Shown here: positions 17,907 through 38,508 of the stretch, piece after piece | Layout: every line of letters begins with the position of its first letter | Position numbering within the stretch: the stretch's first letter is position 1 | DNA from: a candidate division FCPU426 bacterium | GTDB lineage: Bacteria > Oederibacteriota > Muellerivitia > Muellerivitales > Muellerivitaceae | Length of the DNA: 64,000 bases | Reading direction: 5' to 3' | NCBI GenBank assembly: GCA_963719085.1 | Contig: CAVRAL010000004.1 | Span: 64,001 to 128,000, forward strand | Notes under the pieces: generated by a model | What the model saw: only the letters and a program-made list of their open reading frames with translations | Told to the model about the DNA's origin: nothing | The model's database searches: none | Made by a program: the position numbers and the translations under genes

Positions 17907-17991
17907 GTCAAACTTCAATGCAGAATCGCGATCTTGAGGGTTTGGCGCCTGTCAAACTTCAGTGAAGAATCGCGATCTTGAGAGTTTGGCG
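17907..17991 (-). repeat. Tandem 41-bp duplication (44-bp period) of the 3' end of the 1866-aa gene
   Basis: 17907-17947 vs 17951-17991: 38/41 identical; both read [18 protein letters not shown]. Confidence 0.92.
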
Positions 17992-20900
17992 GGCGATCAA
18001 TTCGTTTCCCGACTTCAGTTCCACCACGCCGATATACATGCCGCTGGCGATGTTGATGCCGGCCAGGTTCCAGGTTACTTGGGAAGCGTTTCCAGGATCA
18101 TTGGTCAATCGGATCTTCGTCAATTCCCCCGCCACAGTGTAAAGTTCAATCTCCACGTTATCCACCAAGGGACTGTTCACGTTGATTTTAAACTTGGCCG
18201 TTTGGGTCTGGCTTAAATTAATCGGGTTGGGCTCCAGCAGGGTCTTCCCCGCGGCGCTGCCTGAAGGCGGCAGCACCACGATATCCCAGGTGGTTTCTTG
18301 GGAAGTCGTGTTGGGTTGGGTTGATTTGAGTTCCAAGAAATAGGAGCCGGGCTGCAGGAATTCGCCATTGGCGCCCTGGCCGTCCCAAACAAAACTTCCG
18401 CCCGATCCTAAGGTGATCGTCACACTGGCGCCTGCGGCCCCCGGCTGGTTATAGGATGGGCTCAAAGTTTGCGAGGAAATTTTCACGCCGCCCAACCCAT
18501 AATCTTTCAAGGACAAGGCCGCTACGCCCATCAACGACTCAATTTGAGCCGTATCGAGGCTTTCGACCACTTCACCGGCTCCGTTATAGAGGGTCAAAGA
18601 CAGCGTGCTTTGCGCCAGGTTGACGGTCACATCCTGGGTCACGCTGGTCGTCACCCCAAAGGGATCGGTGCTTTGCACTTTCACGTAATAGGTTCCATTG
18701 TTCACTTTATCGCCCTTGTTATTCGTGGCGTCCCAGCTAGCCAAGGTGACGCCGCCATAGACCAAAGAAGCCACATCTTGGGGTTTTTGAATCACCGATC
18801 CGGTCATGTCAAAACCGGAGAGGGCGAACGAAGACTCAAACGTGGTCAGGGTTTTGACCAGTTCCCCGGCCCCGTTATAAACATCGACATGAACCATGTA
18901 ATCACCGGTGACGGTTAAGGAATTGGAGGCGGAGACCAGGCCCCCCGGATAAGCCAATTGGGCCTGATTCACCACCGGATTAAACTCGCCCGCGAATAGC
19001 CCCAATTTGACTTGATACGTCAAAGTTCCGCTCGCCCCAGCCGGAATCACCGGCAAAGTCCAGGACAAAGTATTCGTCCCAGTGTTATAGACCCCGCCAT
19101 TTGACGCGGATCCGGCCACATAACTTTCAGCCGCCGTAGGTGGAAGATTATCCGTTAAGGTCACATTCAAAACCGAACCCGATCCCATATTGGAGTAAGC
19201 CAGTGAATAAGTGACGGTGTCATCGGCATGACCCGAACTTTCGGAAGCCGTCTTTACCAAGGTCAAGTAAGGCGTCGGAGTCGGGGTCGGCGTAAAGGTA
19301 AAGGTGAAGGTGGGCGTGGGCGTGTAGGTGAAGGTAAAGGTGGGGGTCGGCGTAAAGGTAAAGGTCGGCGTGTAAGTGGCGGTGGGGGTAAGCGTCGGTG
19401 TTGGGGTATGGGTCAAGGTCGGGGTCCGCGTGGGCGTAAAGGTTTCCGTCGGCGTAAAAGTGGTCGTCGGCGTCAAGGTCGGGGTTTTCGTGGGCGTCCA
19501 AGTCGCCGTATTCGTCGCGGTAAAGGTCAAAGTCGGCGTGGGACTTTGGGTCGCGGTCAAGGTCCAGGTCGGAGTAACGGTCAGCGTGGGCGTCAGGGTC
19601 GGCGTCACCGTCAAGGTATTCGTCGGGCTGTTAGTGGCGGTGGGCGTCAAGGTCGATGTCGGGGTCGGCGACTCGGTGGAAGTCAATGTCACCGTAAAGG
19701 TATCGGTGGGTGTCAAGGTCGGTGTTGGAGTGGGCGACAAGGTGGGCGTGTCCGAGGGCGTGGGCGTATCGGAAGCCGTCGGGGTGGACGTGTCGGTATT
19801 GGTATTAGTCACCGTTGGCGTATCCGTAAGGGTGGCGGTCTGAGTCGTGGTAGCTGAAGGCGTGGGGGTCAAAGTTTGAGTCGGCGTATTGGAAGGCGTC
19901 GGGGTTAAGGTCGGAGTCTTGGTTGAGGTCACTGTGGAAGTGGAAGTTGGCGTCGAAGTGTCGGTGGCCGTATTCACCGAGGTATTGGTAGGTGTCGGCG
20001 TCCAAGTCGTTGTGGGAGTTGGGGTCAGCGTATTCGTGGCCGTAGACGTAGGCGAAGCGGTCGGAGTGAGGGTAACCGTTGAGGTTGACGTCCAGCTATT
20101 GGTCACTGTCGGCGTGGGTGTTGCCGTAGCCGTTTCCGTCGCCGTCCAGGTGGGCGTAGGCGTCGGTGTAAAAAGCGGGGTGTGGGTGGGAGTCGGCGTT
20201 GCCGTAGCGGTTGGCGACGCCGTCGGGGTCGAGGTTGGAGTTGGCGTAGGGGTATTTGTTTGGGTCCAAGTCGCCGTTGGAGTTTGAGTGACGGTAGGCG
20301 TATTCGAGGCCGTTGGAGTATCGGACGGGGTGGAGGTGGACGTCGGGGTAAAGGTCGGGGTGGGGGTGAAGAGCGGCGTGTAAGTCTTCGTCGGCGTTGA
20401 TGTGGGCGTCAAAGTAAAAGTGGGAGTCGGTGTCACCGTCGCCGTAGGCGTGGCGGTCGAAGTGGAGGTGAGGGTAAAGGTTAAAGTCGGCGTCAAACTG
20501 GGAGTGGGGGTCGCGGTCAAACTCGGCGTCGGGGTAAGCGTCACGGTTAAAGTCGGGGTCGGCGTCGCTGTAGCCGTTAGCGAGGCCGTGGGTGTAAAGG
20601 TCAAGGTTTTGGTTGGAGTGGCGGTAGGCGTCGGCGTAAAGATAGACGTTTGAGTGGGTGTGGCTGTAGACGTAGGCGATGCCGTAGCCGTAGGCGAGGC
20701 AGTCAAAGTCGGGGTAGATGAATTGGTGGGCGTCAAAGTGGGTGTTGGACTGTTGGTGGGCGTCGGGGTCGGACTGTTAGTCAGGGTATTGGTGGGGGTC
20801 GCCGTTGGTGTCTTCGTCGGCGTTGAGGTTGGAGTCGGCGTCGCCGTAGGGCTATTGGTGGGGGTATTGGTTGCCGTAGGCGTGGGTGTATTCGTCGGTG

Positions 20901-23559
20901 TGGTCGTTGGCGTTAAGGTGGGCGTGGCCGTAGGACTATTAGTTGGAGTATTCGTTGCTGTAGACGTAGGCGTGGCGGTCGGAGTGGGGGTATTTGTCAA
21001 AGTGTTAGTCGGTGTCATCGTTGGTGTCTTCGTCGGGGTAAAGGTTGGCGTAGCCGTGGGGCTATTGGTCGGGGTATTCGTCGGCGTGGCGGTCGCGGTC
21101 GGAGTATAAGTGGGCGTATTCGTCGGTGTGGTCGTTGGTGTCGTCGTCGGGGTAAAAGTTGGCGTGGCCGTGGGGCTATTGGTCGGGGTATTCGTCGGCG
21201 TAACGGTGGCCGTAGGGGTCGGTGAGGCAGTCGGTGTATTGGTAGGTGTGGCGGTAGGCGTCTTAGTGGGAGTCAGAGTCGGCGTCGGGGTCGGTGTCGC
21301 AGTTAGTGTGGGTGTGAGAGTCGTTGTAAAGGTCGCGGACGGCGTTGCCGTAGGCGTCGAGGTTCTCGTTGGTGTCGGACTGCTGGTCGGGGTCAAAGTC
21401 GGAGTCAAGGTAGGGGTAAGTGTCGGCGTCAGCGTCGGTGTCAAAGTAAGCGTTGGGGTAAGTGTTGGCGTAAGGGTCGGGGTAAACGTCGGGGATGGCG
21501 TAGGAGTGGGCGTCAAGGTTCGCGTGGGAGTTGGACTATTCGTGAGGGTCAAAGTCGGAGTGAGGGTGGGCGTCGCCGAAGAGGTCGGAGTTGGCGTTAA
21601 GGTCGGCGTAAGGGTCGCGGTCAAAGTGGGCGTACGGGTGGGCGTGGGGCTAAACGTTGAAGTCGGAGTAATGGTGGGTGAGGCCGTGTTGGTGGGCGTA
21701 GGGGTACAGGTGGGAGCCGGCGTACTGCAAGGCGGGACGCCGGTATTGGGATCCAAATCACCCGCGGCGTCCGTCACTTCCGAAACCAAACTGCCGTTGT
21801 AATAAAGTGCGTAATAAGGCGTGTCATGCAGATTGGTATCCGCGCAACTGCTTCCCGCCCCCAAATGGGAATAATCATCCGCCCAATTACCGCCGTCCAT
21901 TTGGGAATTGTTCCGGCCGAATTTGAACATATCACCCTGGGACTGCCAATAACCCCCGTTGGGGGGAATTTGAACCGTATCCGACGCCCCAATCGTGAAG
22001 GTTACGGCTTGGTTCGCGTAATGCCCCGAGATGGCCGTACAAGGGGTCGAACTGCCGTGGCTGGTGGAAGTGCCGCTGAGATTGACGTTATTGGACCCTC
22101 CCACGCTGTTGACGGTTTGCCCCGCCGAATTGGTGAAGGTATCCATATTTTCGGCGCCGGTTTCATAAAGCCAAACCACGATGCTGACATTGGTCAAGGG
22201 GAATGCGGTGGCGCCGTAATTAGTGATACGCACCCCGAAGTTTTGGGTTTGATTCCCCATCGAGTTACAGGCCACCTGCATATTCAGCAAGGGACCGGCG
22301 GAGGATCCGCAAGGCACGGGCCCGGTGGTGAAGGTGGGCGTGGGCACGGGCGGCGTGAGGGTTCCCGTGGGGGTGAAGGTGGGCGACAGGGTGGAGGTCA
22401 GGGTGGGAGTAGGCGTTGGTGTATTGGTGCCGCAAGGAATCGTGGAAACAATCGTGGCGGCTGAACTGGCGTTGCCGGTGGCCCAAGTCACGCTGGCTGA
22501 ATTGGTGACCGATTGGCAAAGGTTGTTCGGGTAATAATAATTGATGAGATAACCGGTCAAGGTCACGCAGGTATTCGCGGGGAAAGCGTAAGCCCCGGAA
22601 TAGACGATTTGTCCGTTGTTACATTGAACGCTGCCGATGTTGCTGATAGGCGGCGTGGGACAGGGTACCCATCCGCCCCATTGAAATCCGCCGCCGCTGA
22701 AGTTATCCGAGACGGTGACGGAAGCGTTCGTCACCGCGGAGCCCGTGTTACAAAGTTGAAGGCAATAGGTAATGGACTCCGCGTTGCCGTTGAATATGGG
22801 GCCGCCTCCCGAACAAATCGATTTGGTGATGGTAAAATTGGGCGCGGTCAAAGTGGGGACAGGCGTCGGGATGGTCAGGCATTGTTTCCAGAAAAGGGCG
22901 CCCGTGCTGTTGCTGGAGCTATCATCCGCGGTGGCGTTATTGGATATAAAAGGAAGATAGGCTCCGGTGACCGGGTTAAAGATCGGCTGGCCCCAGGTTT
23001 GACCCGTCACCACAACCGGCGACTGGGTGAAGTCGCCGCTGGGATCCGTATAGCCGGGCTGATACCAATTGTAAGTTCCGTCATTGGGTGGATCGGTGCT
23101 GGGATTGCCTAAGGGCGTGTAATAAAGTGAATCACCTGCGTTAGAGCTGGTAATTTCGGCGTGTCCCCCGCCGGCGCAAGTGATGTCCAAATCCCAGGAC
23201 GTGTAATTATCGTTCGGCGCCGAGTTTTGGGTCTTGATGGCCAGGCAAACCGCTCCGGGCGCCACGTTCGACGGCGGTGACGTGATGTCCGCGAGCGGAA
23301 TCGTCAGCGACGTGATGCAGCCGGTCGATCCTTCATTGCAATAATTAATCGTCCCAACCGAATTGCCGTTAATCCAAACATTGGACGTATCGTCGCCGCC
23401 CACATCAATTTGCGCCGACGTGGGGGTACAAGGTTGGGCTGAAACAGGGGTGGGAGAAAAAAAACTAAGAAAGATTCCTAAACAAAATAGTTTGAACCCA
23501 AGCCGAAACGAAAGCCGGGTTGAATAAAAAAGATAACAAGTTAAAATAGGGACTTTCAT
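17959..23559 (-). CDS. Giant secreted surface protein: beta-sandwich + DUF11-like + CBM3-like + Thr/Pro stalk + DUF11 + 2x FlgD-Ig-like + CTD
   Basis: Signal peptide; [15 protein letters not shown]3-like ITNYG...ADDYS...[10 protein letters not shown]; ~800 aa [31 protein letters not shown]...SGMY...KIAILH*. Confidence 0.85.
19271..21725 (-). repeat. Coding low-complexity T-x-T-P tract of the 1866-aa protein
   Basis: Near-continuous T-x alternation with diverse codons; boundaries approximate. Confidence 0.9.
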
Positions 23560-23709
23560 GATGATTCCCGTAAATGGTCGGCTTCGTTTCGTTAAAAACG
23601 ATTTTTGGTTGCTCGCTAAAACGCATTACTTCACCTCCAAATATTACATCATGTTTATCATTAAAACAGCTGTTAAACCGGATAAATGAAACCAAATAAA
23701 GGGCCAATT

Positions 23710-26700
23710 TTAATGCAAAATGGCCAATTTCATGATTTTGCGATCAAGGACTTGGTTCCCTTCGCGCAATTCAACATCCGCGAAATACATTCCACTCGCC
23801 AAGCTGATGCCGCTTAAGTTCCAGGTGACCCAATTTAAGTTCCCAGGGTCATTCATCAAAGCGGGGCCCACCAGTTCGCCCGCCAAGGTGTAAATTTTCA
23901 CTTGAACGTTGTCCGCTTGCGGCGCGCTCAATGTCAGCGCGAACATCACCTTTTGGGTTTGGTTCAAATAAACCAGGTTGGGTTCCACCACGACCTTTAC
24001 AATCGGCGAGCTGTTCTGATCCAAGACAGTGACGTTCTCGCTGACATTGGCTTGCGCTTGCCCGGAAATTTGGGAAGTGAAATTCAGGGTATATTGACCC
24101 GAACTCACAATTTTCCCGCCGGCGTTCACCCCTTCCCATCGGAAGCTTCGGCCCGATCCCAGCGTGATTAAAACCGAGCTTCCGTTTCCAGTTGGGTTGC
24201 CGTAAGAAGGCGTAATCACCGTCGGTGAAAAGGTCGCCAAGCCCAGATCATAGTCGGCCGTCTGCAAAGGCCCGCCGATGAGCGTCTCCAGCTGTGTTTT
24301 GGAAAGCGTCATCACAATTTCGCCCGAGCTATTGAAGACCGTGAATTGCATCGAGTTGGTTTTTAACATCACGGTCGTTTGCTGGGTAACCGTCGTTGAG
24401 ACGCCAAGGGGATCCGTACTGTTCACCACGATGAAATAAGTTCCGTTTGATACCTTATCACCCTTAACATTCGTTCCATCCCAGGCGTCCAGCGTCATCC
24501 CCTGATAAAGAATCTTAACCGAATCCCCATCCGTTTGGATCAGGTCGCCCGTCAAGCTAAAGCTCGAAATAGGGGAGGCCAATTCAAAGGTATCCAACGT
24601 TTTCACCAGCTCACCTGACGAATTGAAGACGGAAATTTTCACGACATAATCCCCCGCCATGGTCACCGAATTGGAAACACAATCGGTTATTCCGGCGTAG
24701 GACAAGCAGGCGTTATTGACCAGCGTTTCCCCGGAATGAACTTGTAACCCGATTTGCGCCTTATAAGTCAGCACAAGGCTCGCGCCCGGCGCCAGAGAAG
24801 GAATCGACCAGGTGATTTCCGCGCCGTTATCTAAGCCGCCGTCCGAGGCCGAACCGGCCACATAGATCATCGCGCTGGGCAAGGTGTCGGTAACCGAAGC
24901 GTTAAAAATAGTCGTGCTGCCCAAATTGGAATAGGTCAGGGTATAGGTAATCACGTCCGCTCCATGGGCGGTCGTTTCGGACGCGGCCTTCACCAACGAT
25001 CCAAACGGCGTGGCGGTCGGGGTCGGGGTAAAGGTAAAGGTCGCCGTCATCGTGAATGTCGGGGTGGGGGTATTCGTCACGGTCGGCGTACGGGTTACCG
25101 TGGGGGTCGGCGTCAAAGTAGGGGTGAAGGTCGGTGTAAAGGTCAAAGTGGCCGTCGGGGTTTGGGTCGGCGTACGCGTCACCGTTGGGGTAGGGGTGGT
25201 GGTGGGGGTAAAGCTGTTCGTCGGCGTATTGGTCATTGTCGCCGTAGCCGTCGGCGAGGCGGTTGGAGTCACCGTCGGGGAATTCGTGGCCGTGGGCGTC
25301 AAAGTGGCCGTTGGAGTATCGGTCGGGGTATTGGTCGTGGTCGGCGTGGGCGTCGTCGTAGGCGAGTCGGTTGGGGTAAAAGTGGGCGTGACCGTGGGAG
25401 TGTTGGTCAGGGTCGGGGTATCCGTTGGCGTCGCGCTGGAAGTTGGCGAATCCGTGGGAGTAGCTGTCGAGCTGGGTGTCGGGCTGTCCGTGGGGCTATT
25501 GGTCGGCGTGGTCGTAGGCGTATCGGTCGGAGTATGGGTGAATGTAGGCGTGTTCGTGGGCGTTTGAGTCGGGGTCATGGTTGGCGTGTCCGTGGCTGTG
25601 GGCGAAGCGGTCGGCGTATGGGTCAAAGTCACCGTCGGCGTATTCGTCGTGGTCGGGGTGTCGGTTGGGGTATTGGTCACGGTCGGCGTTGCCGTGGCCG
25701 TCGGCGTATTCGTCGGAGTCTTCGTCGGCGTCACGGTGGGCGTATCCGTCACCGTCAGGGTGTCGGTCGGCGTGTTGGTCACCGTCGGCGTGTTCGTCGA
25801 CGTCTCGGTCGGCGTATCCGTTATCGTCGCGGTGGTGGTCGGGGTGGCCGTGGGTGTATCGGTCGGCGTGTTGGTGACCGTGGGGGTGTTCGTCGGCGTC
25901 TGAGTCGGCGTCACCGTGGGCGTGTCGGTCGTCGTCGGCGTATCCGTTGGGGTATTGGTCACGGTCGGCGTCGCCGTGGCCGTTGGCGTATTCGTCGGAG
26001 TCTTAGTCGATGTCACGGTGGGTGTGTCCGTTGTCGTAGGCGTATTAGTTGGCGTATTGGTCAAGGTCACCGTCGGCGTATCGGTCGGAGTGTTGGTCGC
26101 GGTAATTGTCGCCGTGGTGGTCGGGGTGGCCGTGGGTGTATCGGTCGGCGTATTGGTGACCGTGGGGGTGTTCGTCGGCGTCTTAGTCGGCGTCACCGTC
26201 GGCGTATTCGTCGTGGTCGGGGTGTCGGTTGGGGTATTGGTCACGGTCGGCGTATTCGTCGGAGTCTTCGTCGGCGTCACCGTGGGCGTATTGGTGACCG
26301 TCGGCGTGTCGGTTGGAGTATTGGTCAAAGTGACCGTCGGGGTCGCCGTAGTCGTCGGCGTATCCGTTGGAGTGTTGGTCGCCGTAATCGTCGCGGTGGT
26401 GGTCGGGGTGGCCGTGGGTGTATCGGTCGGCGTGTTGGTGACCGTGGGGGTGTTCGTCGGCGTCTGAGTCGGCGTCACCGTGGGCGTGTCGGTCGTCGTC
26501 GGCGTATCCGTTGGGGTATTGGTCACGGTCGGCGTCGCCGTGGCCGTTGGCGTATTCGTCGGAGTCTTAGTCGATGTCACGGTGGGTGTGTCCGTTGTCG
26601 TAGGCGTATTAGTTGGCGTATTGGTCAAGGTCACCGTCGGCGTATCGGTCGGAGTGTTGGTCGCGGTAATTGTCGCCGTGGTGGTCGGAGTCGCGGTCGG

Positions 26701-29700
26701 TGTGTCCGTCGGGGTATTCGTCACGGTTGGAGTGTTGGTCGGCGTCTTAGTCGGTGTCACCGTAGGCGTGTCGGTTGGCGTATTGGTTGGCGTCACGGTG
26801 GGTGTATTGGTTGTCGTCGGCGTATCCGAAGGTGTGGGTGTGGCCGTGGTCGTAGGCGTATTGGTCGTCGTATTGGTCAAGGTCGCCGTCGGCGTATCGG
26901 TTGGGGTATTGGTCGCGGTGATCGTCGCCGTAGTAGTTGGAGTCGCGGTCGGCGTATCCGTCGGGGTATTCGTCACCGTCGGAGTGTTGGTCGGCGTCTT
27001 AGTCGGCGTCACCGTAGGTGTATCGGTCGGGGTATTGGTAACGGTCGGCGTGTTCGTCGGGGTGTTGGTAGGAGTGTTTGTCACTGTGGGCGTATTCGTA
27101 GGCGTATTGGTCGGGGTATTGGTGACGGTCGGCGTATTCGTAGGCGTGTTGGTTGGAGTGTTTGTCACTGTGGGCGTATTCGTCGGCGTGTTGGTCGGGG
27201 TATTTGTGACCGTAGGCGTATTCGTGGGTGTATTGGTTGGAGTGTTCGTAACCGTCGGCGTATTCGTAGGCGTATTGGTCGGGGTATTGGTGACGGTCGG
27301 CGTATTCGTAGGCGTATTGGTCGGGGTATTGGTCACTGTCGGAGTATTAGTCGGTGTGTTCGTTGGCGTATTTGTCACGGTCGGCGTGTTCGTCGGGGTG
27401 CTGGTGGGAGTATTTGTCACTGTGGGCGTATTCGTAGGGGTATTAGTCGGGGTATTCGTCACTGTCGGTGTGTTCGTTGGCGTGTTTGTCACCGTTGGCG
27501 TATTCGTAGGCGTATTGGTCGGGGTATTGGTGACGGTCGGCGTGTTCGTAGGTGTGTTGGTTGGAGTGCTCGTGACCGTCGGAGTATTCGTAGGTGTGTT
27601 GGTCGGGGTATTTGTGACCGTAGGCGTATTCGTGGGTGTATTGGTTGGAGTGTTCGTAACCGTCGGCGTATTCGTAGGCGTATTGGTCGGGGTATTGGTC
27701 ACTGTCGGAGTATTCGTCGGTGTGTTCGTTGGCGTATTCGTCACGGTCGGCGTGTTCGTCGGGGTGCTGGTGGGAGTATTTGTCACTGTGGGCGTATTCG
27801 TAGGGGTATTAGTCGGGGTATTCGTCACTGTCGGTGTGTTCGTTGGCGTATTGGTCGGGGTATTGGTGACGGTCGGCGTGTTCGTCGGGGTGTTGGTAGG
27901 AGTGTTCGTGACCGTCGGGGTATTCGTAGGTGTGTTGGTCGGGGTATTCGTCACTGTCGGAGTATTCGTAGGCGTATTGGTCGGAGTGTTTGTCACTGTG
28001 GGCGTATTCGTCGGCGTGTTGGTTGGGGTATTCGTCACAGTAGGAGTATGAGTCGGCGTGTTGGTCGGGGTATTGGTGACCGTAGGCGTATTCGTAGGTG
28101 TGTTGGTTGGGGTATTGGTAACGGTTGGGGTATTCGTCGGGGTGCTGGTGGGAGTATTTGTCACTGTGGGCGTATTCGTAGGGGTATTAGTCGGGGTATT
28201 CGTCACTGTCGGTGTGTTCGTTGGCGTATTGGTCGGGGTATTGGTGACGGTCGGCGTATTCGTAGGCGTGTTGGTTGGAGTGTTTGTCACTGTGGGCGTA
28301 TTCGTCGGCGTGTTGGTCGGGGTATTGGTGACCGTAGGCGTATTCGTAGGTGTGTTGGTTGGGGTATTGGTAACGGTCGGCGTGTTCGTCGGGGTGTTGG
28401 TAGGAGTGTTTGTCACTGTGGGCGTATTCGTGGGTGTATTGGTTGGAGTGTTCGTAACCGTCGGCGTGTTCGTAGGTGTGTTGGTTGGAGTGTTCGTGAC
28501 CGTCGGGGTATTCGTAGGTGTGTTGGTCGGGGTATTCGTCACTGTCGGAGTATTCGTAGGCGTATTGGTCGGAGTGTTTGTCACTGTGGGCGTATTCGTC
28601 GGCGTGTTGGTTGGGGTATTCGTCACAGTAGGAGTATGAGTCGGCGTGTTGGTCGGGGTATTGGTGACCGTAGGCGTATTCGTAGGTGTGTTGGTTGGGG
28701 TATTCGTCGGGGTGTTGGTAGGAGTGTTTGTCACTGTGGGCGTATTCGTGGGTGTATTGGTTGGAGTGTTCGTAACCGTCGGCGTGTTCGTAGGTGTGTT
28801 GGTCGGAGTATTAGTTACCGTTGGTGTGTTTGTGGGTGTCTTAGTTGGGGTGTTCGTTACTGTAGGCGTATTCGTAGGCGTATTGGTCGGGGTATTGGTC
28901 ACCGTCGGAGTATTAGTCGGGGTGTTCGTTGGCGTATTCGTCACGGTCGGCGTGTTCGTCGGGGTGCTGGTGGGAGTATTTGTCACTGTGGGCGTATTCG
29001 TAGGGGTATTAGTCGGGGTATTGGTCACTGTCGGTGTGTTCGTTGGCGTGTTTGTCACCGTTGGCGTATTCGTAGGCGTATTGGTCGGGGTATTCGTCAC
29101 TGTCGGAGTATTCGTCGGTGTGTTCGTTGGGGTATTCGTAACGGTCGGCGTGCTGGTGGGTGTCTTAGTTGGGGTGTTCGTCACTGTAGGCGTGTTGGTC
29201 GGTGTATTAGTCGGGGTATTCGTGACCGTCGGTGTATTCGTAGGCGTGTTGGTCGGAGTATTGGTCACCGTTGGTGTGTTAGTGGGTGTACTGGTTAGGG
29301 TATTCGTCACGGTTGGCGTATTCGTAGGCGTGTTAGTCGGCGTGTTGGTGACCGTCGGTGTATTCGTCGGCGTAGTAGTCGGTGTCTTAGTCGGGGTAGT
29401 CGTTGCTGTGTTGGTCGGCGTTGTCGTGGGTGTATTCGTCGGCGTGTTGGTGGGGGTCGTGGTGGGAGTCGTAGTTGGAGTATTAGTCGGTGTATTCGTC
29501 ACCGTCGGGGTAGTCGTCGGCGTGTTAGTGGGGGTCGTGGTGGGGGTTTGCGTCAAGGTAATTGTGGGCGTCGGGGTCAGGGTCACGGTCGGAGTTTTAG
29601 TTAAGGTGACGGTCGGCGTTTGGGTCAGGGTGACCGTGGGTGTCAAAGTGGGCGTCTGAGTCGGCGTTGTGGTAGGCGTCTGGGTAAGCGTAATCGTCGG

Positions 29701-31560
29701 TGTCTGGGTTAAGGTCACCGTAGGCGTTGGCGTCACAGTCACAGTCGGTGTCGGAGTCAGCGTGATGGTGGGCGTGAAAGTGAAAGTCGCCGTCGGGGTG
29801 GGAGTCAGGGTCCTGGTGGCTGTTGGGGTGGGTGTCGGGGTCAAGCAGTTTAAAGCCTCATAAGCGCCCACGTCCCAGGTTTTGCATTGGGGACGGGTGT
29901 TATAGTCCCGGTCAATACCGATACCGTCATTGGTGCCCGCGTCGATCAAAATCGAACCCGTCGCCAGGTGATAATCCGACCCGTAATTCACGAAAGCCGC
30001 GGTAGTGATGCTGAAATCCCCTGTTCCTGACAGCGTCGTCTTGACGTAGGCGTCATAGGTGAAGCCGGTCAACTTCGAGGCGCTGACATCCGTGGTGATA
30101 TTGGCGAAAGCGGTATTGGTAACCGTACTGGCGTCGTTATTGTCGCTTTGAAGGAACCCGATGTTGTTGTCGGCAATGGTGGAATTTAAGATTGTCGCGT
30201 AAACGTTATCGGGCAAGTCAATCCCGATCCCGCCCGTGAAGCCGGCCACGACGGCGTTTTGGAGGTACAAGGACTGGCCGTTCCCGGAAGTTGAAATAAT
30301 GCCTTCCGGCGTGGTCCCATTGCCCAAAATGGAAACTTGGTCGAAAGAAACCGCGTTCGTGTTATTGGCGGCGGAATAACTTACCAGCGCCGAGTTGGTC
30401 AGGCCCGTGCTGACGATGGTGTCATTGGTAAAATTGACGCTCCCGTTATTGATGTTGTTCCAGAGAAAAACATTTCCCGTCGCGTTCGGCTGGTTCAAGG
30501 TGAGGCCCAAGATCGAAATCGAGTTGCTGTTGAGGTTTTGGAAATTGCTGAAGATCCCGTTGCCGGAAGAACCCGCATTCCAAGTAATAGATCCAGCCGG
30601 AACAGAGGGATTGGCCTCAAAAACAAGCCCGATTCCCGTCACCGCCACCGACTCGATGTCGTTGTTGAGAAGGACGATGGTGGCTCCCGTGCAGGCTACA
30701 TTCACGGCGGCCTGAATGGACGTGAAGGTCAGCGGTCCGCAGGAAGTGCATCCCACGTTGACATAAAGATCGCCCGAATAGCAGGAGGGGGTCGCGGTGG
30801 CCGTCAGGGTCACCGTCGGGGTTTGAGTGATCGTGAAAGTGAAAACCGGCGTCAAGGTGACGGTCGCGGTCGCGGTGGCTGTCCCGGTCTTGGTAAATGT
30901 CGGGGAAACGGTCGGGGAAGCTGTAACGGTGGGCGTCCGAGTAACCGTCGGAGTGGGGGTGACACTGGGAGTCGGGGTCACCGTCGGCGTGCTGGTCGGC
31001 GTGCTGGTCGGCCCCGTCGAAGCCGTGAAGCCGGCGTGAGCGTACGAAACATTCCCGCCTTGGGTGCCGCAATTCTGGAGATAATCCTCCCCCATGGCGG
31101 CGACGATATTATAGGTCCCCCCGCCGGTAACATCCGCGGAAGGAATCGTCACATTGAAAACCTGCGTCACGGAATTCGCCGCCGTGAAAGAATATCCCGT
31201 ATTCCACGAGGAAGCGTTCGTATCATTCTGGCCGGTGGTCGTCGGGCCAAAGGCCGTCCCCGAGCCTGAATTGCCGTCCACTAGTTCGTATTGACCCGTC
31301 GCGGGGCAGGTCGCGGGGACAGTGACAGCCGACGGCTCCAAAAGAATGTAGAAGTAAATTCCCTGATAATAATTGGTGTCGCTGTAAACAAGGGTGACGC
31401 TCATCGTTCCGCCGGGAGCGACCGAACCGCTGGAAAGCGAGACACTCACCACTGGCGCGGCCAAGACGGATCCGGTCACAAGAAAAGCAAAAGCCACCAA
31501 ACAGGTTTTAAAAAACCCGTGGACCCCCGCGAATATCTTTTTGTTTTTTAACAAGCTCAT
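23710..31560 (-). CDS. Giant secreted surface protein: N-terminal domain + beta-helix/choice-of-anchor-Q-like + ~1600-aa Thr/Pro/Asn stalk + DUF11 + 2x FlgD-Ig-like + CTD
   Basis: Start ATG 31560 with SD AGGA (ORF is open to 31614). FTSIQAAV beta-helix start; [12 protein letters not shown]...RPQ...DVGAYE; tail ending KLAILH*. Confidence 0.85.
25010..29845 (-). repeat. Coding tandem repeat, core 10-aa unit [10 protein letters not shown] (30 bp), with higher-order block duplications
   Basis: Core array ~27030-29360 (roughly 75 units). A ~300-bp block at 25827-26124 recurs at 26391-26688. Confidence 0.92.
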
Positions 31561-32125
31561 AACTTCGTTCCTAATTGACCGGTTAAAAACTTTTTGCCGG
31601 GATAACGTTTGCATTTAAAAAAATAAAAAATCCTAAAATTCGTTTTTAAAATGTGTCGAAGAATGAGGTTCGAAAGAAAAAATTCGAAAAGTCGACGGAC
31701 TGGGCGGCAATTTCAGTTGCCTTGGAATTCGCAAGTTTTTTGACCCTCAATTGCAGGCCGAACCTCGGAATTTGTTTTTATATCAAAGCTTTCACATTAA
31801 ACCTAACGGCTTTAATCCCGTAAAGTTTACCACTTATTATCCCCAAAACTAGTCCCTTTTGGTGCCAAAAAGCCTTTAAAATTGGCAAAATTAGCCATTT
31901 TTGTCAAAAAAAGTTTAACCTGAAAGCAAAGAGCGGCTCGCGTCATCCTTCCCTCACGAAATAACTCACCACCATCCCCAAACAATAGATTTCCAGCTCT
32001 CAAGGTTTTCACCGAGACAAAAAAGTAAAGCCCGGTTAGCCGAAAGTCGATGGCGTGGAAAGTCCTATTTCGCTTTGTTATACTTCCCGCCTGTTTCATC
32101 AACCCAACCCGCTAAAGGACTTCGC

Positions 32126-33139
32126 ATGATCGCTTCCGGCCTTTCCGCCACTTCTTGGGACCTCCTGGCTCAAAAAGCCATTCAAAAAATAGCCCCCAGC
32201 CCCGAGGAAGCTTTATCGATCCTCTCCGCCCCGCGGGAAGAAACCCTTTCCATCGTCCACGCGGCTTATCAAGTGCGCCGTCATTTTCACGGCAATAAGG
32301 TCCGCATTCATGTGCTGCAAAACGCGAAATCCGGCGCTTGTCCTGAAGATTGCGGTTTTTGCTCCCAGTCCTCCAAATATCAAACACCCGCTGAGAAATA
32401 TCCCATGATGACCGTCGGACAATTGGTCGAGGGCGCCCGAAAAGCCAAAGCCGCCGGCGCCTGGAAATATTGCATGGTGACGGCCACCCGTGGGCCCAGC
32501 ACCCGGGACTTAGACGTCATTTGCGAAGCCACCCGTCAAATTAAGGCTGAAGGTGGAATCAAGGTTTGCACTTCCCTGGGCATCCTGACCGAGGAAAAAG
32601 CCAAGCGTTTGGCGGAGGCCGGCGTGGACCGCTTTAACCACAATTTGGAAACCTCCAAGCGCCTTTATTCTAAAATTGTTTCCACCCATACTTACGAGGA
32701 CCGCGTCCAAACCACCCAATACGCCAAACAAGCCGGCATGGATATTTGCTCCGGCGGCATTATCGGTTTGGGCGAGGAAATGGAAGATGTGATTGAGCTC
32801 TGCTTCGCCCTGCGGCGGATCGGCGCCGATTCGGTTCCCGTCAATTTTTTAGATCCCCGTCCCGGAACCCCGATGGCGTCAGGAACCACTGTCGAGCCTT
32901 ATTACGCTCTACGGGTGCTCGCTCTTTTTCGCTTCGTGCATCCCGATGTCGATCTTCGGTCCGCGGGAGGCCGGGAAGTCACCTTCCGTTCGCTCCAGCC
33001 TTTGGTTCTTTACATGGTCAACTCTATTTTCACCAATGGTTACTTGACGACGGATGGCCAAGGCGAGAATGCCGACCATCAAATGATTAAGGACATGGGA
33101 ATGGTTCCCCAAATTGTCGGGGGAGAATTCAACGCGTAA
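32126..33139 (+). CDS. bioB: Biotin synthase
   Basis: NAKSGACPEDCGFCSQS radical SAM motif, FNHNLETS, CSGGIIG.GE, SVPVNFL, GYLTT. Start ATG 32126. Confidence 0.96.
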   Translation: MIASGLSATSWDLLAQKAIQKIAPSPEEALSILSAPREETLSIVHAAYQVRRHFHGNKVRIHVLQNAKSGACPEDCGFCSQSSKYQTPAEKYPMMTVGQLVEGARKAKAAGAWKYCMVTATRGPSTRDLDVICEATRQIKAEGGIKVCTSLGILTEEKAKRLAEAGVDRFNHNLETSKRLYSKIVSTHTYEDRVQTTQYAKQAGMDICSGGIIGLGEEMEDVIELCFALRRIGADSVPVNFLDPRPGTPMASGTTVEPYYALRVLALFRFVHPDVDLRSAGGREVTFRSLQPLVLYMVNSIFTNGYLTTDGQGENADHQMIKDMGMVPQIVGGEFNA

Positions 33140-33170
33140 ATTTCGAGTAGAAGCGACACGATAAAAGAAG

Positions 33171-33215
33171 CTTAAAATAAAAAGGCCCCTTCCACAGGGG
33201 CCTTTTTATTTTAAG
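33171..33215. terminator. Bidirectional intrinsic terminator between bioB and the 1295-aa ORF
   Basis: Perfect 20-bp inverted repeat cttaaaataaaaaggcccct / aggggcctttttattttaag with 5-nt loop. Confidence 0.9.
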
Positions 33216-33230
33216 TCCTCTCGTCCTGGA

Positions 33231-36200
33231 TTAATGCAGGATCGCCAACCGGGTCACTTGCCGCTGGCTGCTGCCGCTGGAGTTCGTCATCACGATATCC
33301 GCGATATAAAGGCCGCTGGCCAATCGAGAAATGTCCAAGGTGTAAAGGCCTCCGCCCGTGTTGACCAAGGGCGGCAGGGACGTCAACTCACCCGCCAGGG
33401 TATAAAGCCGGACCGATAGGCTCAAGGAAGCGGTGGGATCCTTGAAGGTCACCAGGTTTCCGTAAACCGAGGGATTGGTCGGGTTCGGATAAACCGTAAT
33501 GCCTGAGTTGGTCACCTGGGTGGAAACCGGCATCACCACGACGGATTGGCTGAATTCCGACTCATTTCCCTGTCCATCGGTGGACTTAATCTCGAAATAA
33601 TATTGACCCGCGCTGACAATTTGTCCGGCGTCATTTCGACCGTCCCACAAAAAGGAAACGCCCGAGGACAAGGACAAAGTCGTTGTATCGTTCGTTCCGC
33701 CAAGATTACTAGGCGTGATGACCGAATTGGATATCTGGGCGTTGCTGGAGAGCGCCATCGAATCCACTTCGGTCTGGGCCAATTGACGCACTTCCTCGCC
33801 CGCGCTGTTAAAGACGAGGACTTGAAGCTGGGCGACTTTGCGGTTCACGACCGCCGGCTGGGTGACGGAGGTGACATTGCCCATGGGGTCCGCGCTGTCG
33901 ATTTTAATATAGTATTGCCCGTTATTGACCGGCTGCCCGGCGTTGTTGGTCCCGTCCCAAATCCCGATATTCGTTCCCTGGAAAATGATATTAATCTTGT
34001 CTTCCAAGGTGGCGATGATGTTCGAAGTCGATAAGGTCACATTTTGAATGGGGAATGAATACTGGGTGATGGAAATGGTTTTCACGATTTCACCCGCCGA
34101 ATTAAACACGTTGATGCGGACCGTGTAGGCGCCCGACACCGTCACCGGTGCCTGCACCACTTGGGGCGTGGGGTTCGCGGAATAAGAAAGCGCGGCCTGG
34201 TTCTTTAACACGGTGCCGCCCGTGTCCAACAAGTTGACTTGGGCGATGTAAGGCAAGGTGAAGGTACCCGGACCTAAAGTCGGGAAAGTCCAGACCAACA
34301 AAGTCCCCGTGCCGGGGGTGGGCCCCGCCGTGGGCAAGCTCACGACTGTCGGGGCCGGCACGCTGGAAGATGAAATATAAGTCATGCCGGCGGGAACCGT
34401 ATCCGTCACCGTGACGCCGGTGGCGGCGCTCGGCTCAATATCCAAACCGATGTTATAGGTAACCTGGTCCCCGGCGGCGGGTTGGGTGTTGGAAGCCGTT
34501 TTATGGATCCCCACCAAAATCACCGGTGTGTTGGTGGCCGTGGGGCTGTTGGTGGGAGTGGGGGTAAAGGTCGCGGTCACAGTGAATGTGGCTGTGGGTG
34601 TCAGCGTGGGCGTCGGCGTAAAGGTGGCGGTCGCGGACGGAACCGGCGTGAAAGTATTGGTCGCGGTATTCGTGACAGTCGGCGTAAAGGTATCCGTGGG
34701 CGAGAAAGTGGGCGTAAAGCTATTGGTCGGAGTAAAGGTGGGTGTCACGGTCGCTGAAGGCACAGGAGTGGGCGTGTCGGTCGGGGTATCGGTAGGCGTT
34801 ATTGTATTGGTCGGAGTCGGGCTGTTGGTCGGAGTCGGTGAAGGCGAAGGCGTGGGGGAAGGGGTCGGTGTGGGCGTATTTGTCGGGGTATTCGTGGGAG
34901 TCGGAGTGGCCGTGTTTGTGGGCGAAGGCGTTGGGGTTTTAGTCGGCGTCGTGGTCGGTGTATACGTGGGCGTCTGGGTCGGAGTCTGGGTCGGGGTGTT
35001 TGTGGGTGTGGGCGATGGGGTTCTTGTGGGAGTTGGGGTCGGGGTAAAGGTATTCGTGGGGGTTGGCGTCGGCGTAGGCGTGGAGCATAAAATAGTGGCG
35101 GTTACCGCGTTGGAGGTTACCGCGTTGGCGCCCAAGGATTGGATGAAAGCCGTGTTCGTGATGCCGCTTTCGCCCGCGCAGGAAACCGGACCCCACCAAG
35201 TGACCCCGCCGTTCAAGTTATAAATCGTGCCGGGAAAATTCCAAACGAGCGTGGAAGGCCCGCCCGGACCGGTGATATTGCCTCCCGCGCCGGTGGTGAC
35301 CTCGCCTGAATAAGTCACTCCGGGCGGAACCGGATCCGTCAGCTTGCCGTTCACCACGGCAAAGCCCGTGTAATACTTCAGATTGCTGTAGTAATCATCC
35401 CCGGAGGAACCGTCCGCCTGCCAGCCCATCTGATAACCCGTATCGGTACAGGAAGGATTGGACGTGGTGTTTTCAACCACCGTCATTTGCCAATTGCTGG
35501 GCGGCGTGGTGCCCCTAGGCCAAACTTTCGCTTGGATCGTAATGGGGCCCGTTCCAGTCACTAAAGCCTCTTCCGTATACCAAACGCCCGCCGTGATGTT
35601 GGTTCCGATCGCCGCGTTGGCGGCCGTCGCGGGGAATGTCACCACACCCGGACCGTTGTTTTCTTGCAGGAAGAAATTGCCAGGGCCCGTATCCAGGGAA
35701 ATCCCCAGCATATAACCTTTTTGGGTCCCGGGGTCAAAAGCCACCACCATGGTCGCGTCGCCGCCGCTGTCATAACCGGGCGGAATTTCCAAATCACCTT
35801 CCACCATGAAATCGCCGGAGCAGAGATTGATGTTGGGGCTGCTGCGCAAAAGCGCGGGATAGTTGCCGTTCGTTCCCGATCCCGTATAGGCGTTGATGTA
35901 ATGATTGCCTTGGGCGTCACTTTGAACCGTGAAAGTTCCCGTTCCGCCGGTCGTGTTGTAATTGTATCCGGTTCCGTCATATCCATTCACGCCGGCGTTT
36001 GTGGTTCCCGTCCCCACATTGTCGTAAGAATCATAAAGCTGAAGATTGAGTCCGCTGATTTGATAAGTCAATCCGTAGGTGATGATGTCCCCGGGATTTT
36101 CGGCAAGAGTCGAAACCACGCTGTCTTGGGTTTTGGTCAAGGTGAAGCCCGCCTCATTCACGTTGGCTTGGGCCACATTAGACGTCACCGATCCGGTCGC

Positions 36201-37052
36201 CGCGGAAGTCGCACTGGCTTGGTTCGTGATAGCCGTCCCGGTCGCCACGCCGCCGTTCACCTGGGTCAAAAACCAAACCTCGCCCGAAGTAGCCGGAAGG
36301 CTGGCGGGCAAAATCCAAGTGATCGTTGATCCTGATAAAGTTCCACCCGGGCTGATGGCGCTGGCCGTAGGGCTGACTAAACTGACATTGGCCGGAATGG
36401 TATCCTTGATGGTCACGGGTCCGGTGTTTCCATAAGTGTAGTCAATCCGGAAAAGGACCAAGTTGCCGTCGTTCGGGGAAGTTCCATCCGCTATTTTAAG
36501 AAGGCTTAAGTTCGCCGGCGGATAAGGTATATTGACAACCGCGGAGGTATGGGCCACCACGCCCGAGTTACATTGGACGTAATAATCCCCCGCCGACACA
36601 TCCAGATTATAAGCCCCCGCGTTCAGGGTGCTGGGAATGGTGACATTAAAAACCTGCGTGTAGGGACAAGGCAAAGGGCTATTGGGAACCGGCACGCCGG
36701 CCCATCCATTCCCCCCTGGATCACTCACATCATTTCGCGCGGAAGAAACCACGCTCACGCCCGTAGGAGTGGTTCCGCCGTCCACCAAAAGCGCTTGGTT
36801 CGCGGCCGGGCAGGCTTGAATAGTGTTTGAAGACGGGTTCAATGCCACCAACCAATAGGGGGTTACGTTGGCGGTCTCACAATAGGTCACCGTCACCGCG
36901 ACCACCGAACCCGGCGAGGGATTGGCGTTTGAAATTTGAATGTTAGAAATGCTCACGGCGGCCGAAACCAAACCAGGGCATAGCCAACAAAGCACCAACC
37001 CCATGGCGGAAAGACGATTAAATCGTTTTGAGATGTCTTTTAAAAACTTCAT
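33231..37052 (-). CDS. Large secreted surface protein: N-terminal domain + DUF11-like repeats + beta-sandwich + Thr/Pro stalk + DUF11 + 2x FlgD-Ig-like + CTD
   Basis: Likely start ATG 37052 (ORF is open to 37118). Signal peptide; [47 protein letters not shown]...LASGLY...RLAILH*. Confidence 0.85.
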
Positions 37053-37399
37053 AGGCTCGACCTTGTTCAAACAATTTGAAGGGTAATCGAAGTTTCTAAG
37101 GTGCATTTTCCCTGCCAAACCTAACGGCTAACCACACTCAAAGATGAAGGGGTTTTAACAATAAAACCTCAATGGAAAACCTTTATATACCCGTAAATGT
37201 CACTTTTCCACCGATTAAGTCAAAAAGATACTCATTTTAACGTCTAACTAGGTGGCAATTTAAGACAAAAGCCTATAAAGAAAAGGGGTTCAAACTCCTT
37301 ACTCCAGTGAGTCCAAGCGTTTTGATATTCCAGCCAAAATAGATGCTCCGCCAAATCCCGATAAACCAAGGTCCGGGCTGATCCACCCAGCTATTTCCC

Positions 37400-38470: not shown

Positions 38471-38471
38471 T

Positions 38472-38508
38472 AAAAAAAACCGGACAGGCTCTTCCCCATC
38501 CGGCTTTT
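38472..38508 (-). terminator. Intrinsic terminator after ilvE
   Basis: Minus strand gccggatggg-gaagag-cctgtccggt followed by a T run. Confidence 0.65.

Follow-up and report, generated by a model that had tools for sequence, protein, structure and literature searches.

Three genes in the window, as we call the whole 64,000-nucleotide stretch of DNA that was analysed, probably encode modular cell-surface fibrils, which are cargo of a type IX-type (T9SS-type) outer-membrane export route. We assign this reading a probability of roughly 0.7. All three genes lie on the minus strand, and the ORF list gives products of 1866, 2634 and 1295 aa. The proteins have a common layout: a signal peptide, a variable head, a T/P stalk and a tail of about 430 aa that ends in AILH. 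An earlier note on this DNA had described three paralogs with this layout, and the ORFs, the motifs and the 35-46% tail identity bear out that description. When the stalk was bounded by at least 60% T+P+S in 25-aa windows, its length was 844 aa in giant 1, 1624 aa in giant 2 and 204 aa in giant 3. These values agree with the lengths of about 800, 1600 and 190 aa estimated before.

Giant 1 (P0001, 1866 aa) is encoded at 17959..23559 on the minus strand. Its signal peptide and head (residues 1-600; 21760..23559) are without a Pfam family, and paralogous heads are present on two other proteins of the same genome that carry the C-terminal domain (CTD). The stalk (residues 601-1444; 19228..21759), which was delimited by T+P+S windows, contains 45% T and 21% P. 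The four-domain tail (17959..19227) is composed of a DUF11-like domain, two FlgD-Ig domains and the CTD (17962-18246), and ends in KIAILH. Giant 2 (P0002, 2634 aa) is encoded at 23710..31614 on the minus strand. A signal peptide and a head containing a choice-of-anchor Q domain are followed by a T/P/N stalk (residues 586-2209; 24988..29859), the DNA of which consists of imperfect 42/84/126-bp repeats with 73-88% matches. Its tail (23710..24987; CTD, 23713-23997) ends in KLAILH. Giant 3 (P0003, 1295 aa when counted from a TTG codon) is encoded at 33231..37118 on the minus strand. The in-frame ATG at 37052 ('MKFLKD') is likely to be the start codon, rather than the TTG. This protein has a signal peptide, a head, a short stalk (residues 666-869; 34512..35123) and a tail modelled as four beta-sandwich domains (33231..34511; CTD, 33234-33518), which ends in RLAILH. 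Thus, the three C-terminal ends read from the proteins are those given in the earlier note. At the N-terminus of each giant, basic and hydrophobic stretches precede a small-residue site (VSA/QP, LAA/PV and VSA/AV). The three genes adjoin an LPS core / lipid A gene cluster. Chance or an assembly artefact was considered as the source of the stalks and was ruled out, because the repeats are imperfect (73-88% matches) and the frames are open over 5.6-7.9 kb.

A fourth protein (P0004, 509 aa) is encoded at 932..2461 on the minus strand. It is composed of a signal peptide, a small N-terminal domain, a 274-aa T/P/S linker and a CTD (935-1219) with a KILVIR end. Its motifs (YPNP...LYTVA...DGIYY...KILVIR) show that only the last of the four tail domains is present, as had been noticed before.

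The last approximately 435 residues of the three giants showed pairwise identities of 45.7%, 35.3% and 37.4%, and the motifs [FY]N..GE.V, WD..N...V.NG.Y, YT.AGEL and ASG.Y were all present. A tail HMM scored 668-783 bits on the three proteins. Thus, the likeness of the tails is far beyond chance. FlgD_ig (PF13860) matched the three giants with 45.7, 40.4 and 39.9 bits (cut-off 27). A direct Pfam match to DUF11 (PF01345) was obtained for giant 3 only (44.6 bits; cut-off 24.6). The earlier note had placed DUF11 in all three paralogs; this holds directly for giant 3, whereas the first tail domain of giants 1 and 2 is DUF11-like, being homologous by alignment and model. The predicted structure of the tail (pLDDT 91.1) contains four beta-sandwich domains. 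In this model, the tail is three structural Ig-like domains plus a sorting domain of about 90 aa. Therefore, the common tail proposed before (about 420 aa) is real, but only its last 90 aa or so would be the sorting domain. A Foldseek comparison of the whole tail with the PDB was uninformative: only generic multi-Ig adhesins were found, with PorU at rank 34, and the CTD was then folded alone. It should be mentioned that AILH is one variant of a K-hhhh-[H/R/K] end and that H is the last residue in 26 of 38 full-length relatives.

As judged from its sequence, the last domain of the giants is a type A T9SS CTD. When the CTD of giant 3 was scanned alone, it scored 28.0 bits with TIGR04183 (cut-off 23) and 27.1 bits with PF18962 (cut-off 27). 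At E<=0.01, TIGR04183 matched 46 of 51 CTD pieces and PF18962 matched 40 of 51. In a six-frame search of the genome, the three giants scored 27.2, 23.7 and 23.5 bits. In whole-protein scans with TIGR04183, giant 1 scored 16.4 bits, which is below the cut-off, and giants 2 and 3 gave no match at E<=0.01; with PF18962, giant 3 scored 22.7 bits (cut-off 27). The whole-protein scores are below the cut-offs, and CTD membership is therefore based on the isolated domain and the six-frame search. Type B was rejected. TIGR04131 had no match at E<=0.01 in the four proteins (P0001-P0004), and the CHU_C (PF13585) match of 16.9 bits (cut-off 27) fell inside a FlgD-Ig domain. CHU_C matched 5 of 51 CTD pieces (E<=0.01).

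Solved structures point in the same direction. When the CTD profile was compared with PDB sequences, the best match was the CTD of PorU (6za2, residues 1057-1154; E 6e-7), followed by the CTD of PorZ (5m11; 6.5e-5) and the C-terminus of a GH167 enzyme (9whd; 1.4e-4). The model of the CTD (pLDDT 92.8) is a 7-strand sandwich. In VIA-align, it matched the NucA CTD in the translocon (8glk_D) with a Z of 9.1 (rmsd 2.3, 75 aligned residues, 20% identity), the mirolase CTD (8qb1) and PorZ (5m11) with a Z of 8.2 each, and the RemA CTD with a Z of 7.3. CopC ties with these solved CTDs (VIA-align Z 9.2) and has the best Foldseek E value against the CTD model. Therefore, the generic Ig sandwich fold alone is not specific for a CTD.

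The position of the domain was also consistent. The tail match ended within 10 residues of the stop codon in all 53 related loci, and each of the 25 TIGR04183 matches assigned to an ORF lay within 23 aa of the C-terminus. An HMM built for the CTD of this lineage detected 43 ORFs in the genome at E<=1e-3. The domain ended no more than 19 aa from the C-terminus in 42 of these, and a crude script found a signal peptide in 35, including the three giants. These counts support the earlier suggestion that the tail is a C-terminal export or anchoring module tied to signal peptides. In contrast, the suggestion that the export route is lineage-specific does not stand. The last domain gives canonical type A hits (TIGR04183, PF18962), and SprA and PorV of this genome pass TIGR04189 and PF19572. 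The route is thus a relative of the known one and not a new one.

The three giants are not the whole family. The tail HMM detected seven full tails and one partial tail in the genome, and tail matches were found in 29 of 30 other genomes of the same bacterial family. The cargo family has expanded across this whole family of soil and peat bacteria, with more than a dozen copies per genome. The three-domain base beside the CTD is kept across hundreds of paralogues. At least five types of head are joined to a single type of tail, and these heads recur on other tails. This pattern points to a reassortment of heads and tails between paralogues. Together with stalks of 204-1624 aa, this result agrees with the idea of interchangeable heads on stalks of different lengths. 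Four of the five heads had no Pfam family at E<=0.1, and the ESM Atlas gave no usable match for the head of giant 1.

The host is an uncultured soil bacterium, the genome of which is 99% complete. The nearest named relatives of its RpoB are "candidate division FCPU426" (66%) and then NC10 (59%); no match for RpoB or RpoC was present in a MAG labelled Ca. Firestonebacteria. Because RpoB is nearest to FCPU426, the organism is not a member of the Bacteroidota, in agreement with the earlier view of its gene set. The genome encodes LpxA/B/I/K, KdtA and LptF/G, which are genes for an LPS outer membrane.

In agreement with the earlier note, the 64,000-nt window contains no secretion machinery. Elsewhere in the genome, a SprA of 1948 aa is encoded (C1:943518-949364; TIGR04189, 231.8 bits; cut-off 200). 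SprA matches (E<=1e-10) are present in 92 of 99 genomes of the phylum and in 58 of the 60 high-quality ones. In the genome studied here, separate SprA segments match weakly (34-119 bits). A putative PorV (L095) scores 37.6 bits with PF19572 (cut-off 27), and 31 of the order's 32 genomes contain an orthologue. Twelve further PorV/UPF0164-like barrels are encoded, four of them directly after a CTD gene; no barrel gene is adjacent to the three giants. The best NCBIfam score among the PorV-like barrels is 70.7 (NF033710), far below the cut-off of 250. Some of these barrels are fused to OmpA, TPR or FlgD-Ig domains, and many PorV-like proteins have wall-binding domains.

Of the further components named in the earlier note, GldK/L/M and PorU were not detected, in searches without a positive control. 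GldK (TIGR03525) had no match in the 99%-complete genome and no positive control above the cut-off. GldL (TIGR03513), GldM (TIGR03517), Peptidase_C25 (PF01364) and PorP_SprF (PF11751) had no match in the genome, and no control matched with these models either. The GldM model also matched in none of the 99 genomes of the phylum (E<=0.001). GldM_1st (PF12081) had no match in the genome and matched two controls, both below the cut-off. PorU (NF033707) matches covered only model positions 961-1095, which correspond to the CTD of PorU itself, and PorZ was matched only via a CTD. Neither a motor gene nor a ring gene is located beside sprA. From these sequence searches, the machine is apparently reduced to SprA and PorV, without GldK/L/M, PorU and PorP/SprF.

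A docking model of PorV with the CTD scored 0.88, and the best of three controls scored 0.00. Of 157 solved complexes, 116 attained this mark, as did 2 of 215 mismatched pairs; these counts are rough, since our own alignments were used. The runs agreed in at least 86% of contacts, and the partner pLDDT was at least 86. The modelled interface is formed by the PNP, YT.AGEL and ASG.Y motifs and the last strand. Because a like complex has already been solved, however, the pass may show only likeness to it.

Based on these results, we propose the following mechanism. The N-terminal signal peptide would carry the giants through Sec. The last 90 or so residues, which HMM scores, the profile match to solved CTDs and the fold identify as a type A CTD, would dock on the extracellular loops of a PorV carrier inside the SprA translocon, as in the docking model. 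In Bacteroidota, substrates bind carrier-protein loops inside SprA, according to an excerpt of PMC10994853. The giants would then be pulled out and would stay at the cell surface. Because neither a PorU sortase nor PorZ was detected, the CTD is probably not exchanged for an LPS anchor. It may stay bound to PorV or to one of the approximately 12 PorV-like barrels, which include fusions with OmpA or TPR domains. The DUF11-like domain and two FlgD-Ig domains would form a conserved rigid base beside the membrane, and the T/P stalk (204, 844 or 1624 residues) would be a spacer that holds the heads at different distances from the cell. The stalk is probably O-glycosylated by PMT_2/TMEM260-like enzymes of the genome; genes for PMT_2-PA14, GT2 and TMEM260-like-TPR proteins are located 36.6 kb beyond the end of the window. 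In Flavobacterium, the release of cargo from its carrier requires motor input, as stated in the same excerpt of PMC10994853. Because no motor was detected here, either it was missed or the energy source is unexplained.

A wider proposal can be offered tentatively, and we consider it somewhat worse than an even chance: a candidate phylum outside the FCB group may run a stripped-down type IX export, in which a SprA pore and PorV-family carriers work without a PorLM motor or a PorU sortase. Cargo would be plugged non-covalently into dedicated PorV-like barrels, and a standard pedestal (DUF11, two FlgD-Ig and CTD) with tunable T/P stalks would build a layered coat with heads at set distances. The same cargo family might instead be served by a complete classical T9SS, the PorL/M motor, PorK/N ring and PorU-type sortase of which have diverged beyond the reach of models trained on Bacteroidota; in that case, cleavage of the CTD and covalent attachment of the protein to LPS, as in Porphyromonas, would be expected. 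We regard this alternative as rather unlikely. The GldM, GldL, Peptidase_C25 and PorP_SprF models matched nowhere, so that the negative searches are without a positive control, and SprA segments (34-119 bits) and PorV (70.7 against 250) are weak enough that other parts could fall below detection. The location of the giants at an LPS core / lipid A cluster and the need of Flavobacterium for motor input (PMC10994853, in part) also fit a complete machine. However, GldM was found in 0 of 99 phylum genomes, GldK, GldL and GldM_1st were unmatched in a 99%-complete genome, PorU was matched only by its own CTD (961-1095), and sprA has no neighbouring motor or ring gene.

Another alternative is that the tail is a structural docking module rather than a secretion signal. 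In that case, the C-terminal Ig domain would plug the finished protein onto PorV-like/OmpA barrels, as PorZ does on PorQ, after export by another route. The many PorV-like barrels, some fused to OmpA and FlgD-Ig, the barrel genes directly downstream of four cargo genes and the modelled CTD-barrel binding are in line with such a module. It is nevertheless highly improbable, because the phylum has kept the SprA translocon alongside the CTD proteins, and because both the motifs and the HMM matches of the CTD are those of type A domains competent for secretion. It is improbable, too, that the giants use the same route but are released into an extracellular mucin-like matrix or sheath instead of being anchored as fibrils of graded length. 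Many type A cargo proteins of Flavobacterium are released, no anchoring enzyme was detected here, and very long low-complexity stalks resemble those of matrix glycoproteins. Against release, hundreds of paralogues have kept the three-domain base beside the CTD, which suggests that they are attached in a set geometry, and the genome is rich in PorV-like barrels with wall-binding domains. We prefer surface-anchored fibrils.

These fibrils resemble Bacteroidota T9SS type A cargo (NucA and RemA of F. johnsoniae, PDB 8GLK/8GL6; RgpB, PorZ and PorU of P. gingivalis) in having an N-terminal signal peptide and, as the last 90 or so residues, a seven-strand Ig-like CTD that contains the PNP, G.Y and K-hydrophobic-end motifs. 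CTD HMM scores above the cut-off, profile and fold matches to solved CTDs and the presence of SprA and a putative PorV are further similarities. They differ from the Bacteroidota system in that the host belongs outside the FCB group, the searches detected no motor, ring, PorU, PorZ or PorP, the protein chain mostly ends in His, and the CTD is preceded by a T/P stalk that can reach 1624 aa and by an invariable three-domain base. Type B CTD cargo pairs with PorP/SprF-like barrels, for example SprB-SprF in Flavobacterium and PorA-PorP in P. gingivalis. Likewise, in four cases in this genome the cargo gene is followed by its own outer-membrane barrel gene, and we propose that long filamentous surface cargo is held by a barrel and not by LPS. 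However, the CTD here is of type A, the barrels are PorV/UPF0164-like and not PorP/SprF, and the giants are without an adjacent barrel gene. PT linkers of secreted glycoside hydrolases and O-mannosylated actinobacterial proteins are comparable with the mucin-like stalks. Both are T/P-rich low-complexity spacers between folded modules, and PMT_2 and TMEM260-like GT-C enzymes are encoded in the genome, but the stalks of the giants (204-1624 aa) are 10 to 50 times longer.

According to the introduction of a 2024 paper on T9SS C-terminal domains (PMC11285876), T9SS genes do not occur in any phylum beyond the FCB group. SprA, a putative PorV and about 43 type A CTD proteins, among them the modular T9SS cargo, in a non-FCB lineage stand against this restriction. 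A literature search, the coverage of which excluded subscription journals, found no paper on T9SS parts in this lineage, and the available portions of FCPU426 papers on genome recovery and 16S placement are silent on secretion. Should the lineage truly lack the motor and the sortase, it offers a natural experiment on which T9SS parts transport requires and on the source of the energy for cargo release. If the stripped-down reading is true, the outer-membrane core of the T9SS would predate the machine of the Bacteroidota or be more mobile than it, and could work with another or no energy source. In addition, modular surface display is cleanly illustrated by this cargo family, with its one conserved tail, graded stalks and shuffled heads.

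Between giant 3 and a convergent radical-SAM gene, there is a hairpin at 33171..33215 with a perfect 20-bp stem and T runs on both strands. It lies 16 bp past the stop codon of giant 3 and 32 bp past the radical-SAM gene, and is likely to be a bidirectional terminator.

The three giant genes lie on the minus strand, at 17959-23559 (giant 1, 1866 aa, ending KIAILH), 23710-31614 (giant 2, 2634 aa, ending KLAILH) and 33231-37118 (giant 3, 1295 aa counted from TTG, ending RLAILH); the end coordinate of giant 3 in the earlier note corresponds to an in-frame ATG at 37052. Each of the three translations begins with a basic and then a hydrophobic segment and a cleavage site of small residues. Next come the folded head, an extended T/P-rich stretch of low complexity and, at the C-terminus, another folded region. 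When the stalk was defined by at least 60% T+P+S in 25-residue windows, it covered residues 601-1444 in giant 1 (844 aa), residues 586-2209 in giant 2 (1624 aa) and residues 666-869 in giant 3 (204 aa). The DNA of the longest stalk, that of giant 2, contains imperfect 42/84/126-bp repeats with 73-88% matches. Therefore, this stalk is not a collapsed perfect repeat. The final ~435 residues of the three giants show pairwise identities of 45.7%, 35.3% and 37.4%, and an HMM made from these tails gave 668-783 bits on the three proteins. The proposed layout of three paralogs with a common tail was confirmed, and every motif listed for it is present in the ~435-aa alignment. The 509-aa protein at 932-2461 (P0004) possesses the last tail domain only, as had been described, and also a 274-aa T/P/S linker. 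Its N-terminal domain (approximately residues 35-140) has the pattern FHCDIHS...C and was named cupredoxin in the earlier note; Pfam found no cupredoxin family in this protein at E ≤ 0.01.

The AlphaFold2 model of the giant 3 tail, based on a 59-sequence alignment, had a mean pLDDT of 91.1 and comprised four consecutive beta-sandwich domains (roughly residues 12-137, 142-235, 239-339 and 352-439); the linker at residues 341-350 was modelled with low confidence. Pfam assigned domain one of giant 3 to DUF11 (44.6 bits; cut-off 24.6) and domains two and three of the tails to FlgD_ig (45.7, 40.4 and 39.9 bits in the three giants; cut-off 27). The last domain, hereafter the CTD, stayed below the curated cut-offs when whole proteins were scanned (TIGR04183, 16.4 bits in giant 1; PF18962, 22.7 bits in giant 3). 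When the CTD was scanned alone, both cut-offs were exceeded (28.0 versus 23 for TIGR04183 and 27.1 versus 27 for PF18962). Among 51 CTD pieces of the family, TIGR04183 matched 46 and PF18962 matched 40 at E ≤ 0.01, and a six-frame search of the genome with TIGR04183 detected the giants at 27.2, 23.7 and 23.5 bits, all above the cut-off. When a profile of the 51 CTDs was compared with all PDB sequences, the top match was the C-terminal domain of PorU (6za2 residues 1057-1154, E 6e-7), followed by the C-terminal domain of PorZ (5m11, 6.5e-5) and the C-terminus of a GH167 enzyme (9whd, 1.4e-4). The model of the CTD alone (pLDDT 92.8) was superposed on the NucA CTD in the Flavobacterium translocon (8glk_D) with Z 9.1 and rmsd 2.3 over 75 of 75 residues at 20% identity; Z was 8.2 for both the mirolase CTD (8qb1) and PorZ, and 7.3 for the RemA CTD (8gl6_D). 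CopC proteins equal these CTDs as a fold match (Z 9.2, ~10% identity) and gave the best Foldseek E-value. Therefore, the fold of the CTD alone is not diagnostic, and the assignment is carried by the sequence evidence. At the level of sequence, these comparisons show that the giants end in a T9SS sorting domain of type A. A type B signal is excluded: TIGR04131 gave no match, and the CHU_C match (16.9 versus 27) falls inside a FlgD-Ig domain.

The tail match stops within 10 residues of a stop codon in all 53 related loci, and the tails end in K/R, four hydrophobic residues and then H/R/K; His is the last residue in 26 of 38 full-length relatives. In the window's own genome, TIGR04183 gave 26 matches, and all 25 that were mapped to ORFs sit at most 23 residues from the C-terminus. 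With a CTD HMM specific to the lineage (E ≤ 1e-3), 43 ORFs were detected. At most 5 residues follow the domain in 31 of these and at most 19 in 42, and a crude script found a signal peptide in 35. Thus, the tails are tied to signal peptides (35/43) and to the C-terminus (42/43) genome-wide, a point on which the earlier proposal could have failed. The sole internal match among the 43 is in a 3594-aa ORF (C5:127861-138645), in which a CTD-like domain lies 3204 residues ahead of the end and T/P repeats follow; this ORF may be a gene fusion or may result from a problem with the frame or with ORF calling. A cargo island of ~35 kb (C4:1013494-1049171) encodes at least seven CTD proteins and one PorV-like barrel; CTD proteins in this island end in LILK, AILK, LIIK, LILK, LAVKK, LMVLR and AVVH.

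The tail HMM detected four further full-length tails and one partial copy in the same genome. The full-length tails are in proteins of 1411 aa (C1:1413735-1417970, ending KIVVLH), 1372 aa (C1:485265-489383, KFVILR), 959 aa (C4:1046292-1049171, RIAVVH) and 1186 aa (C4:1168126-1171686, KIMRLR), and all the additional tail proteins have T/P stalks of 220-430 aa. In a one-genome-per-species scan, 400 pattern matches yielded 109 relatives, of which 80 were retained; their hosts are uncultured-bacterium MAGs. A protein search with the tail gave 29 matches at E ≤ 1e-3 among 7999 scored candidates; in 17 of the 29, coverage of the tail reaches 97% or more, the top identity is 75%, and none of the 29 bears a functional name. 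A seven-tail profile (E ≤ 1e-10) was positive in 82 of 99 genomes assigned to the same phylum and, apart from the present genome, in 29 of 30 genomes of its family, where a single genome had as many as 18 matches; the copy numbers are approximate, since 17 candidates were scored per genome. Full-length matches (~1e-120) come from the family and order to which the window belongs; more distant families give weaker ones. In the contig scan, MAGs labelled Goldbacteria or Spirochaetia matched at tail residues ~122-439 alone, without the DUF11-like domain.

The RpoB of this organism is 91% identical to those of two MAGs bearing the same tails and 58-59% identical to those of one Goldbacteria-labelled and one Spirochaetia-labelled MAG. 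For RpoC, the identity is 87% with a third MAG that carries the tails, and 61-62% with an unlabelled MAG and a further one labelled Goldbacteria. The nearest named RpoB sequences among the matches listed from a large protein collection were two from "candidate division FCPU426 bacterium" (66%), followed by NC10/Methylomirabilota (57-60%). No Bacteroidota appeared among the named RpoB matches (at least 120 matches listed, most without an organism name). Therefore, the genome is not a member of the Bacteroidota, in agreement with the earlier impression of its gene set, nor of the Fibrobacterota. PMC7031533 groups the FCPU426 16S cluster with Goldbacteria, beside Firestonebacteria and Elusimicrobia.

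As had been stated, the window itself encodes no secretion machinery. Elsewhere in the genome, a 1948-aa protein reached 231.8 bits with the equivalog model of the SprA/Sov translocon, above the cut-off of 200. Immediately after sprA comes a gene (C1:939018-943517) for a 1499-aa fn3 protein that has a CTD; this protein could be a dedicated accessory or a cargo of the translocon. One 322-aa barrel exceeded the Pfam PorV cut-off (37.6 versus 27), and twelve further barrels were PorV/UPF0164-like below it. Of the 99 genomes of the phylum, 92 have an SprA match at E ≤ 1e-10, including 58 of the 60 with high quality; a PorV orthologue (57-70% identity) was present in 31 of the order's 32 genomes. 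In searches without a positive control, GldK, GldL, GldM, GldM_1st, Peptidase_C25 and PorP/SprF gave no match in this 99%-complete genome, the PorU model matched via its own CTD only, and GldM matched none of the 99 genomes of the phylum.

Several PorV-like barrels are fused to other domains (FlgD-Ig and OmpA; OmpA and TPR; TPR alone). The barrel at C1:750663-752438 carries FlgD-Ig and an OmpA peptidoglycan-binding domain; that at C4:42078-44117 carries these and TPR, and its gene adjoins that of an 835-aa CTD protein (C4:44156-46663) with the head of giant 3. In four gene pairs (C4:241672-245429, C5:220468-226379, C1:1272921-1275853 and C4:1040393-1043670), the stop of a CTD-protein gene and the start of a barrel gene overlap and are at most 3 bp apart; a C-terminal TPR region is present in three of these four barrels. 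These one-cargo-one-barrel gene pairs recall the pairs of type B CTD and PorP.

PorV residues 33-322 (28-row alignment) were co-folded with the CTD (51-row alignment). The model score was 0.88, and the best of three controls scored 0.00; 116 of 157 solved complexes attained this mark, as did 2 of 215 mismatched pairs, counts that are rough because own alignments were used. Three runs agreed in at least 86% of contacts, with partner pLDDT of at least 86. On the CTD side, the modelled interface is formed by the conserved motifs PNP, YT.AGEL and ASG.Y and the last strand. The model supports binding of the CTD to PorV but does not prove it; because a PorV-CTD complex has already been solved, the high score may stem from likeness alone.

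The head of giant 3 is common to two paralogues (33-38% identity) and is also borne by a protein of 835 aa whose tail differs. In giant 2, the first domain alone of the head is common with this group, and a choice-of-anchor Q domain is present (28.6 bits versus 25). The giant 1 head was found again on two proteins with other tails. The heads are interchangeable. By analogy with the Flavobacterium mechanism, after Sec export the CTD would dock on PorV in SprA, and the protein would be drawn out. A PorV-family barrel may then keep the CTD as an anchor, as the lack of a detected sortase and the many barrels suggest. Judging from the model and conservation, the three Ig-like domains would form a fixed base and the stalk a spacer that keeps the head at a distance of 204, 844 or 1624 residues. 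According to PMC10994853, the carrier protein within the Flavobacterium SprA pore binds substrates by its extracellular loops, and the motor is required for the complex of carrier and cargo to be released. Energy is the difficulty of this scheme: our searches, which had no positive control, detected no motor. Neither the cargo signal nor the pore is of a new kind. The new elements are the lineage, a parts list that appears reduced, and the combination of a fixed four-domain tail with giant stalks of graded length.

O-glycosylation of the stalks is a possibility. A glycosylation island 36.6 kb beyond the window (C4:164603-176009) encodes, by Pfam, a PMT_2-PA14 fusion, GT2, GT9, an NHL propeller, a GH125-like protein and a TMEM260-like-TPR protein, and is a candidate source of stalk O-mannosylation.

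The giants are flanked by a cytochrome oxidase operon and an LPS core/lipid A cluster, and the cell envelope is diderm with LPS. The dense LPS inner-core/lipid A cluster (37400-49295), directly upstream of giant 3, comprises four GT9 heptosyltransferase-like genes, GT4, LpxK, KdtA, a DUF374 acyltransferase and LpxB; its position would be relevant if the cargo were LPS-linked. Giants 2 and 3 are separated by a biotin-synthase-like radical SAM gene. Between this gene and the convergent giant 3, a perfect 20-bp-stem hairpin with T/A runs at its flanks (33171-33215) is likely a bidirectional terminator.
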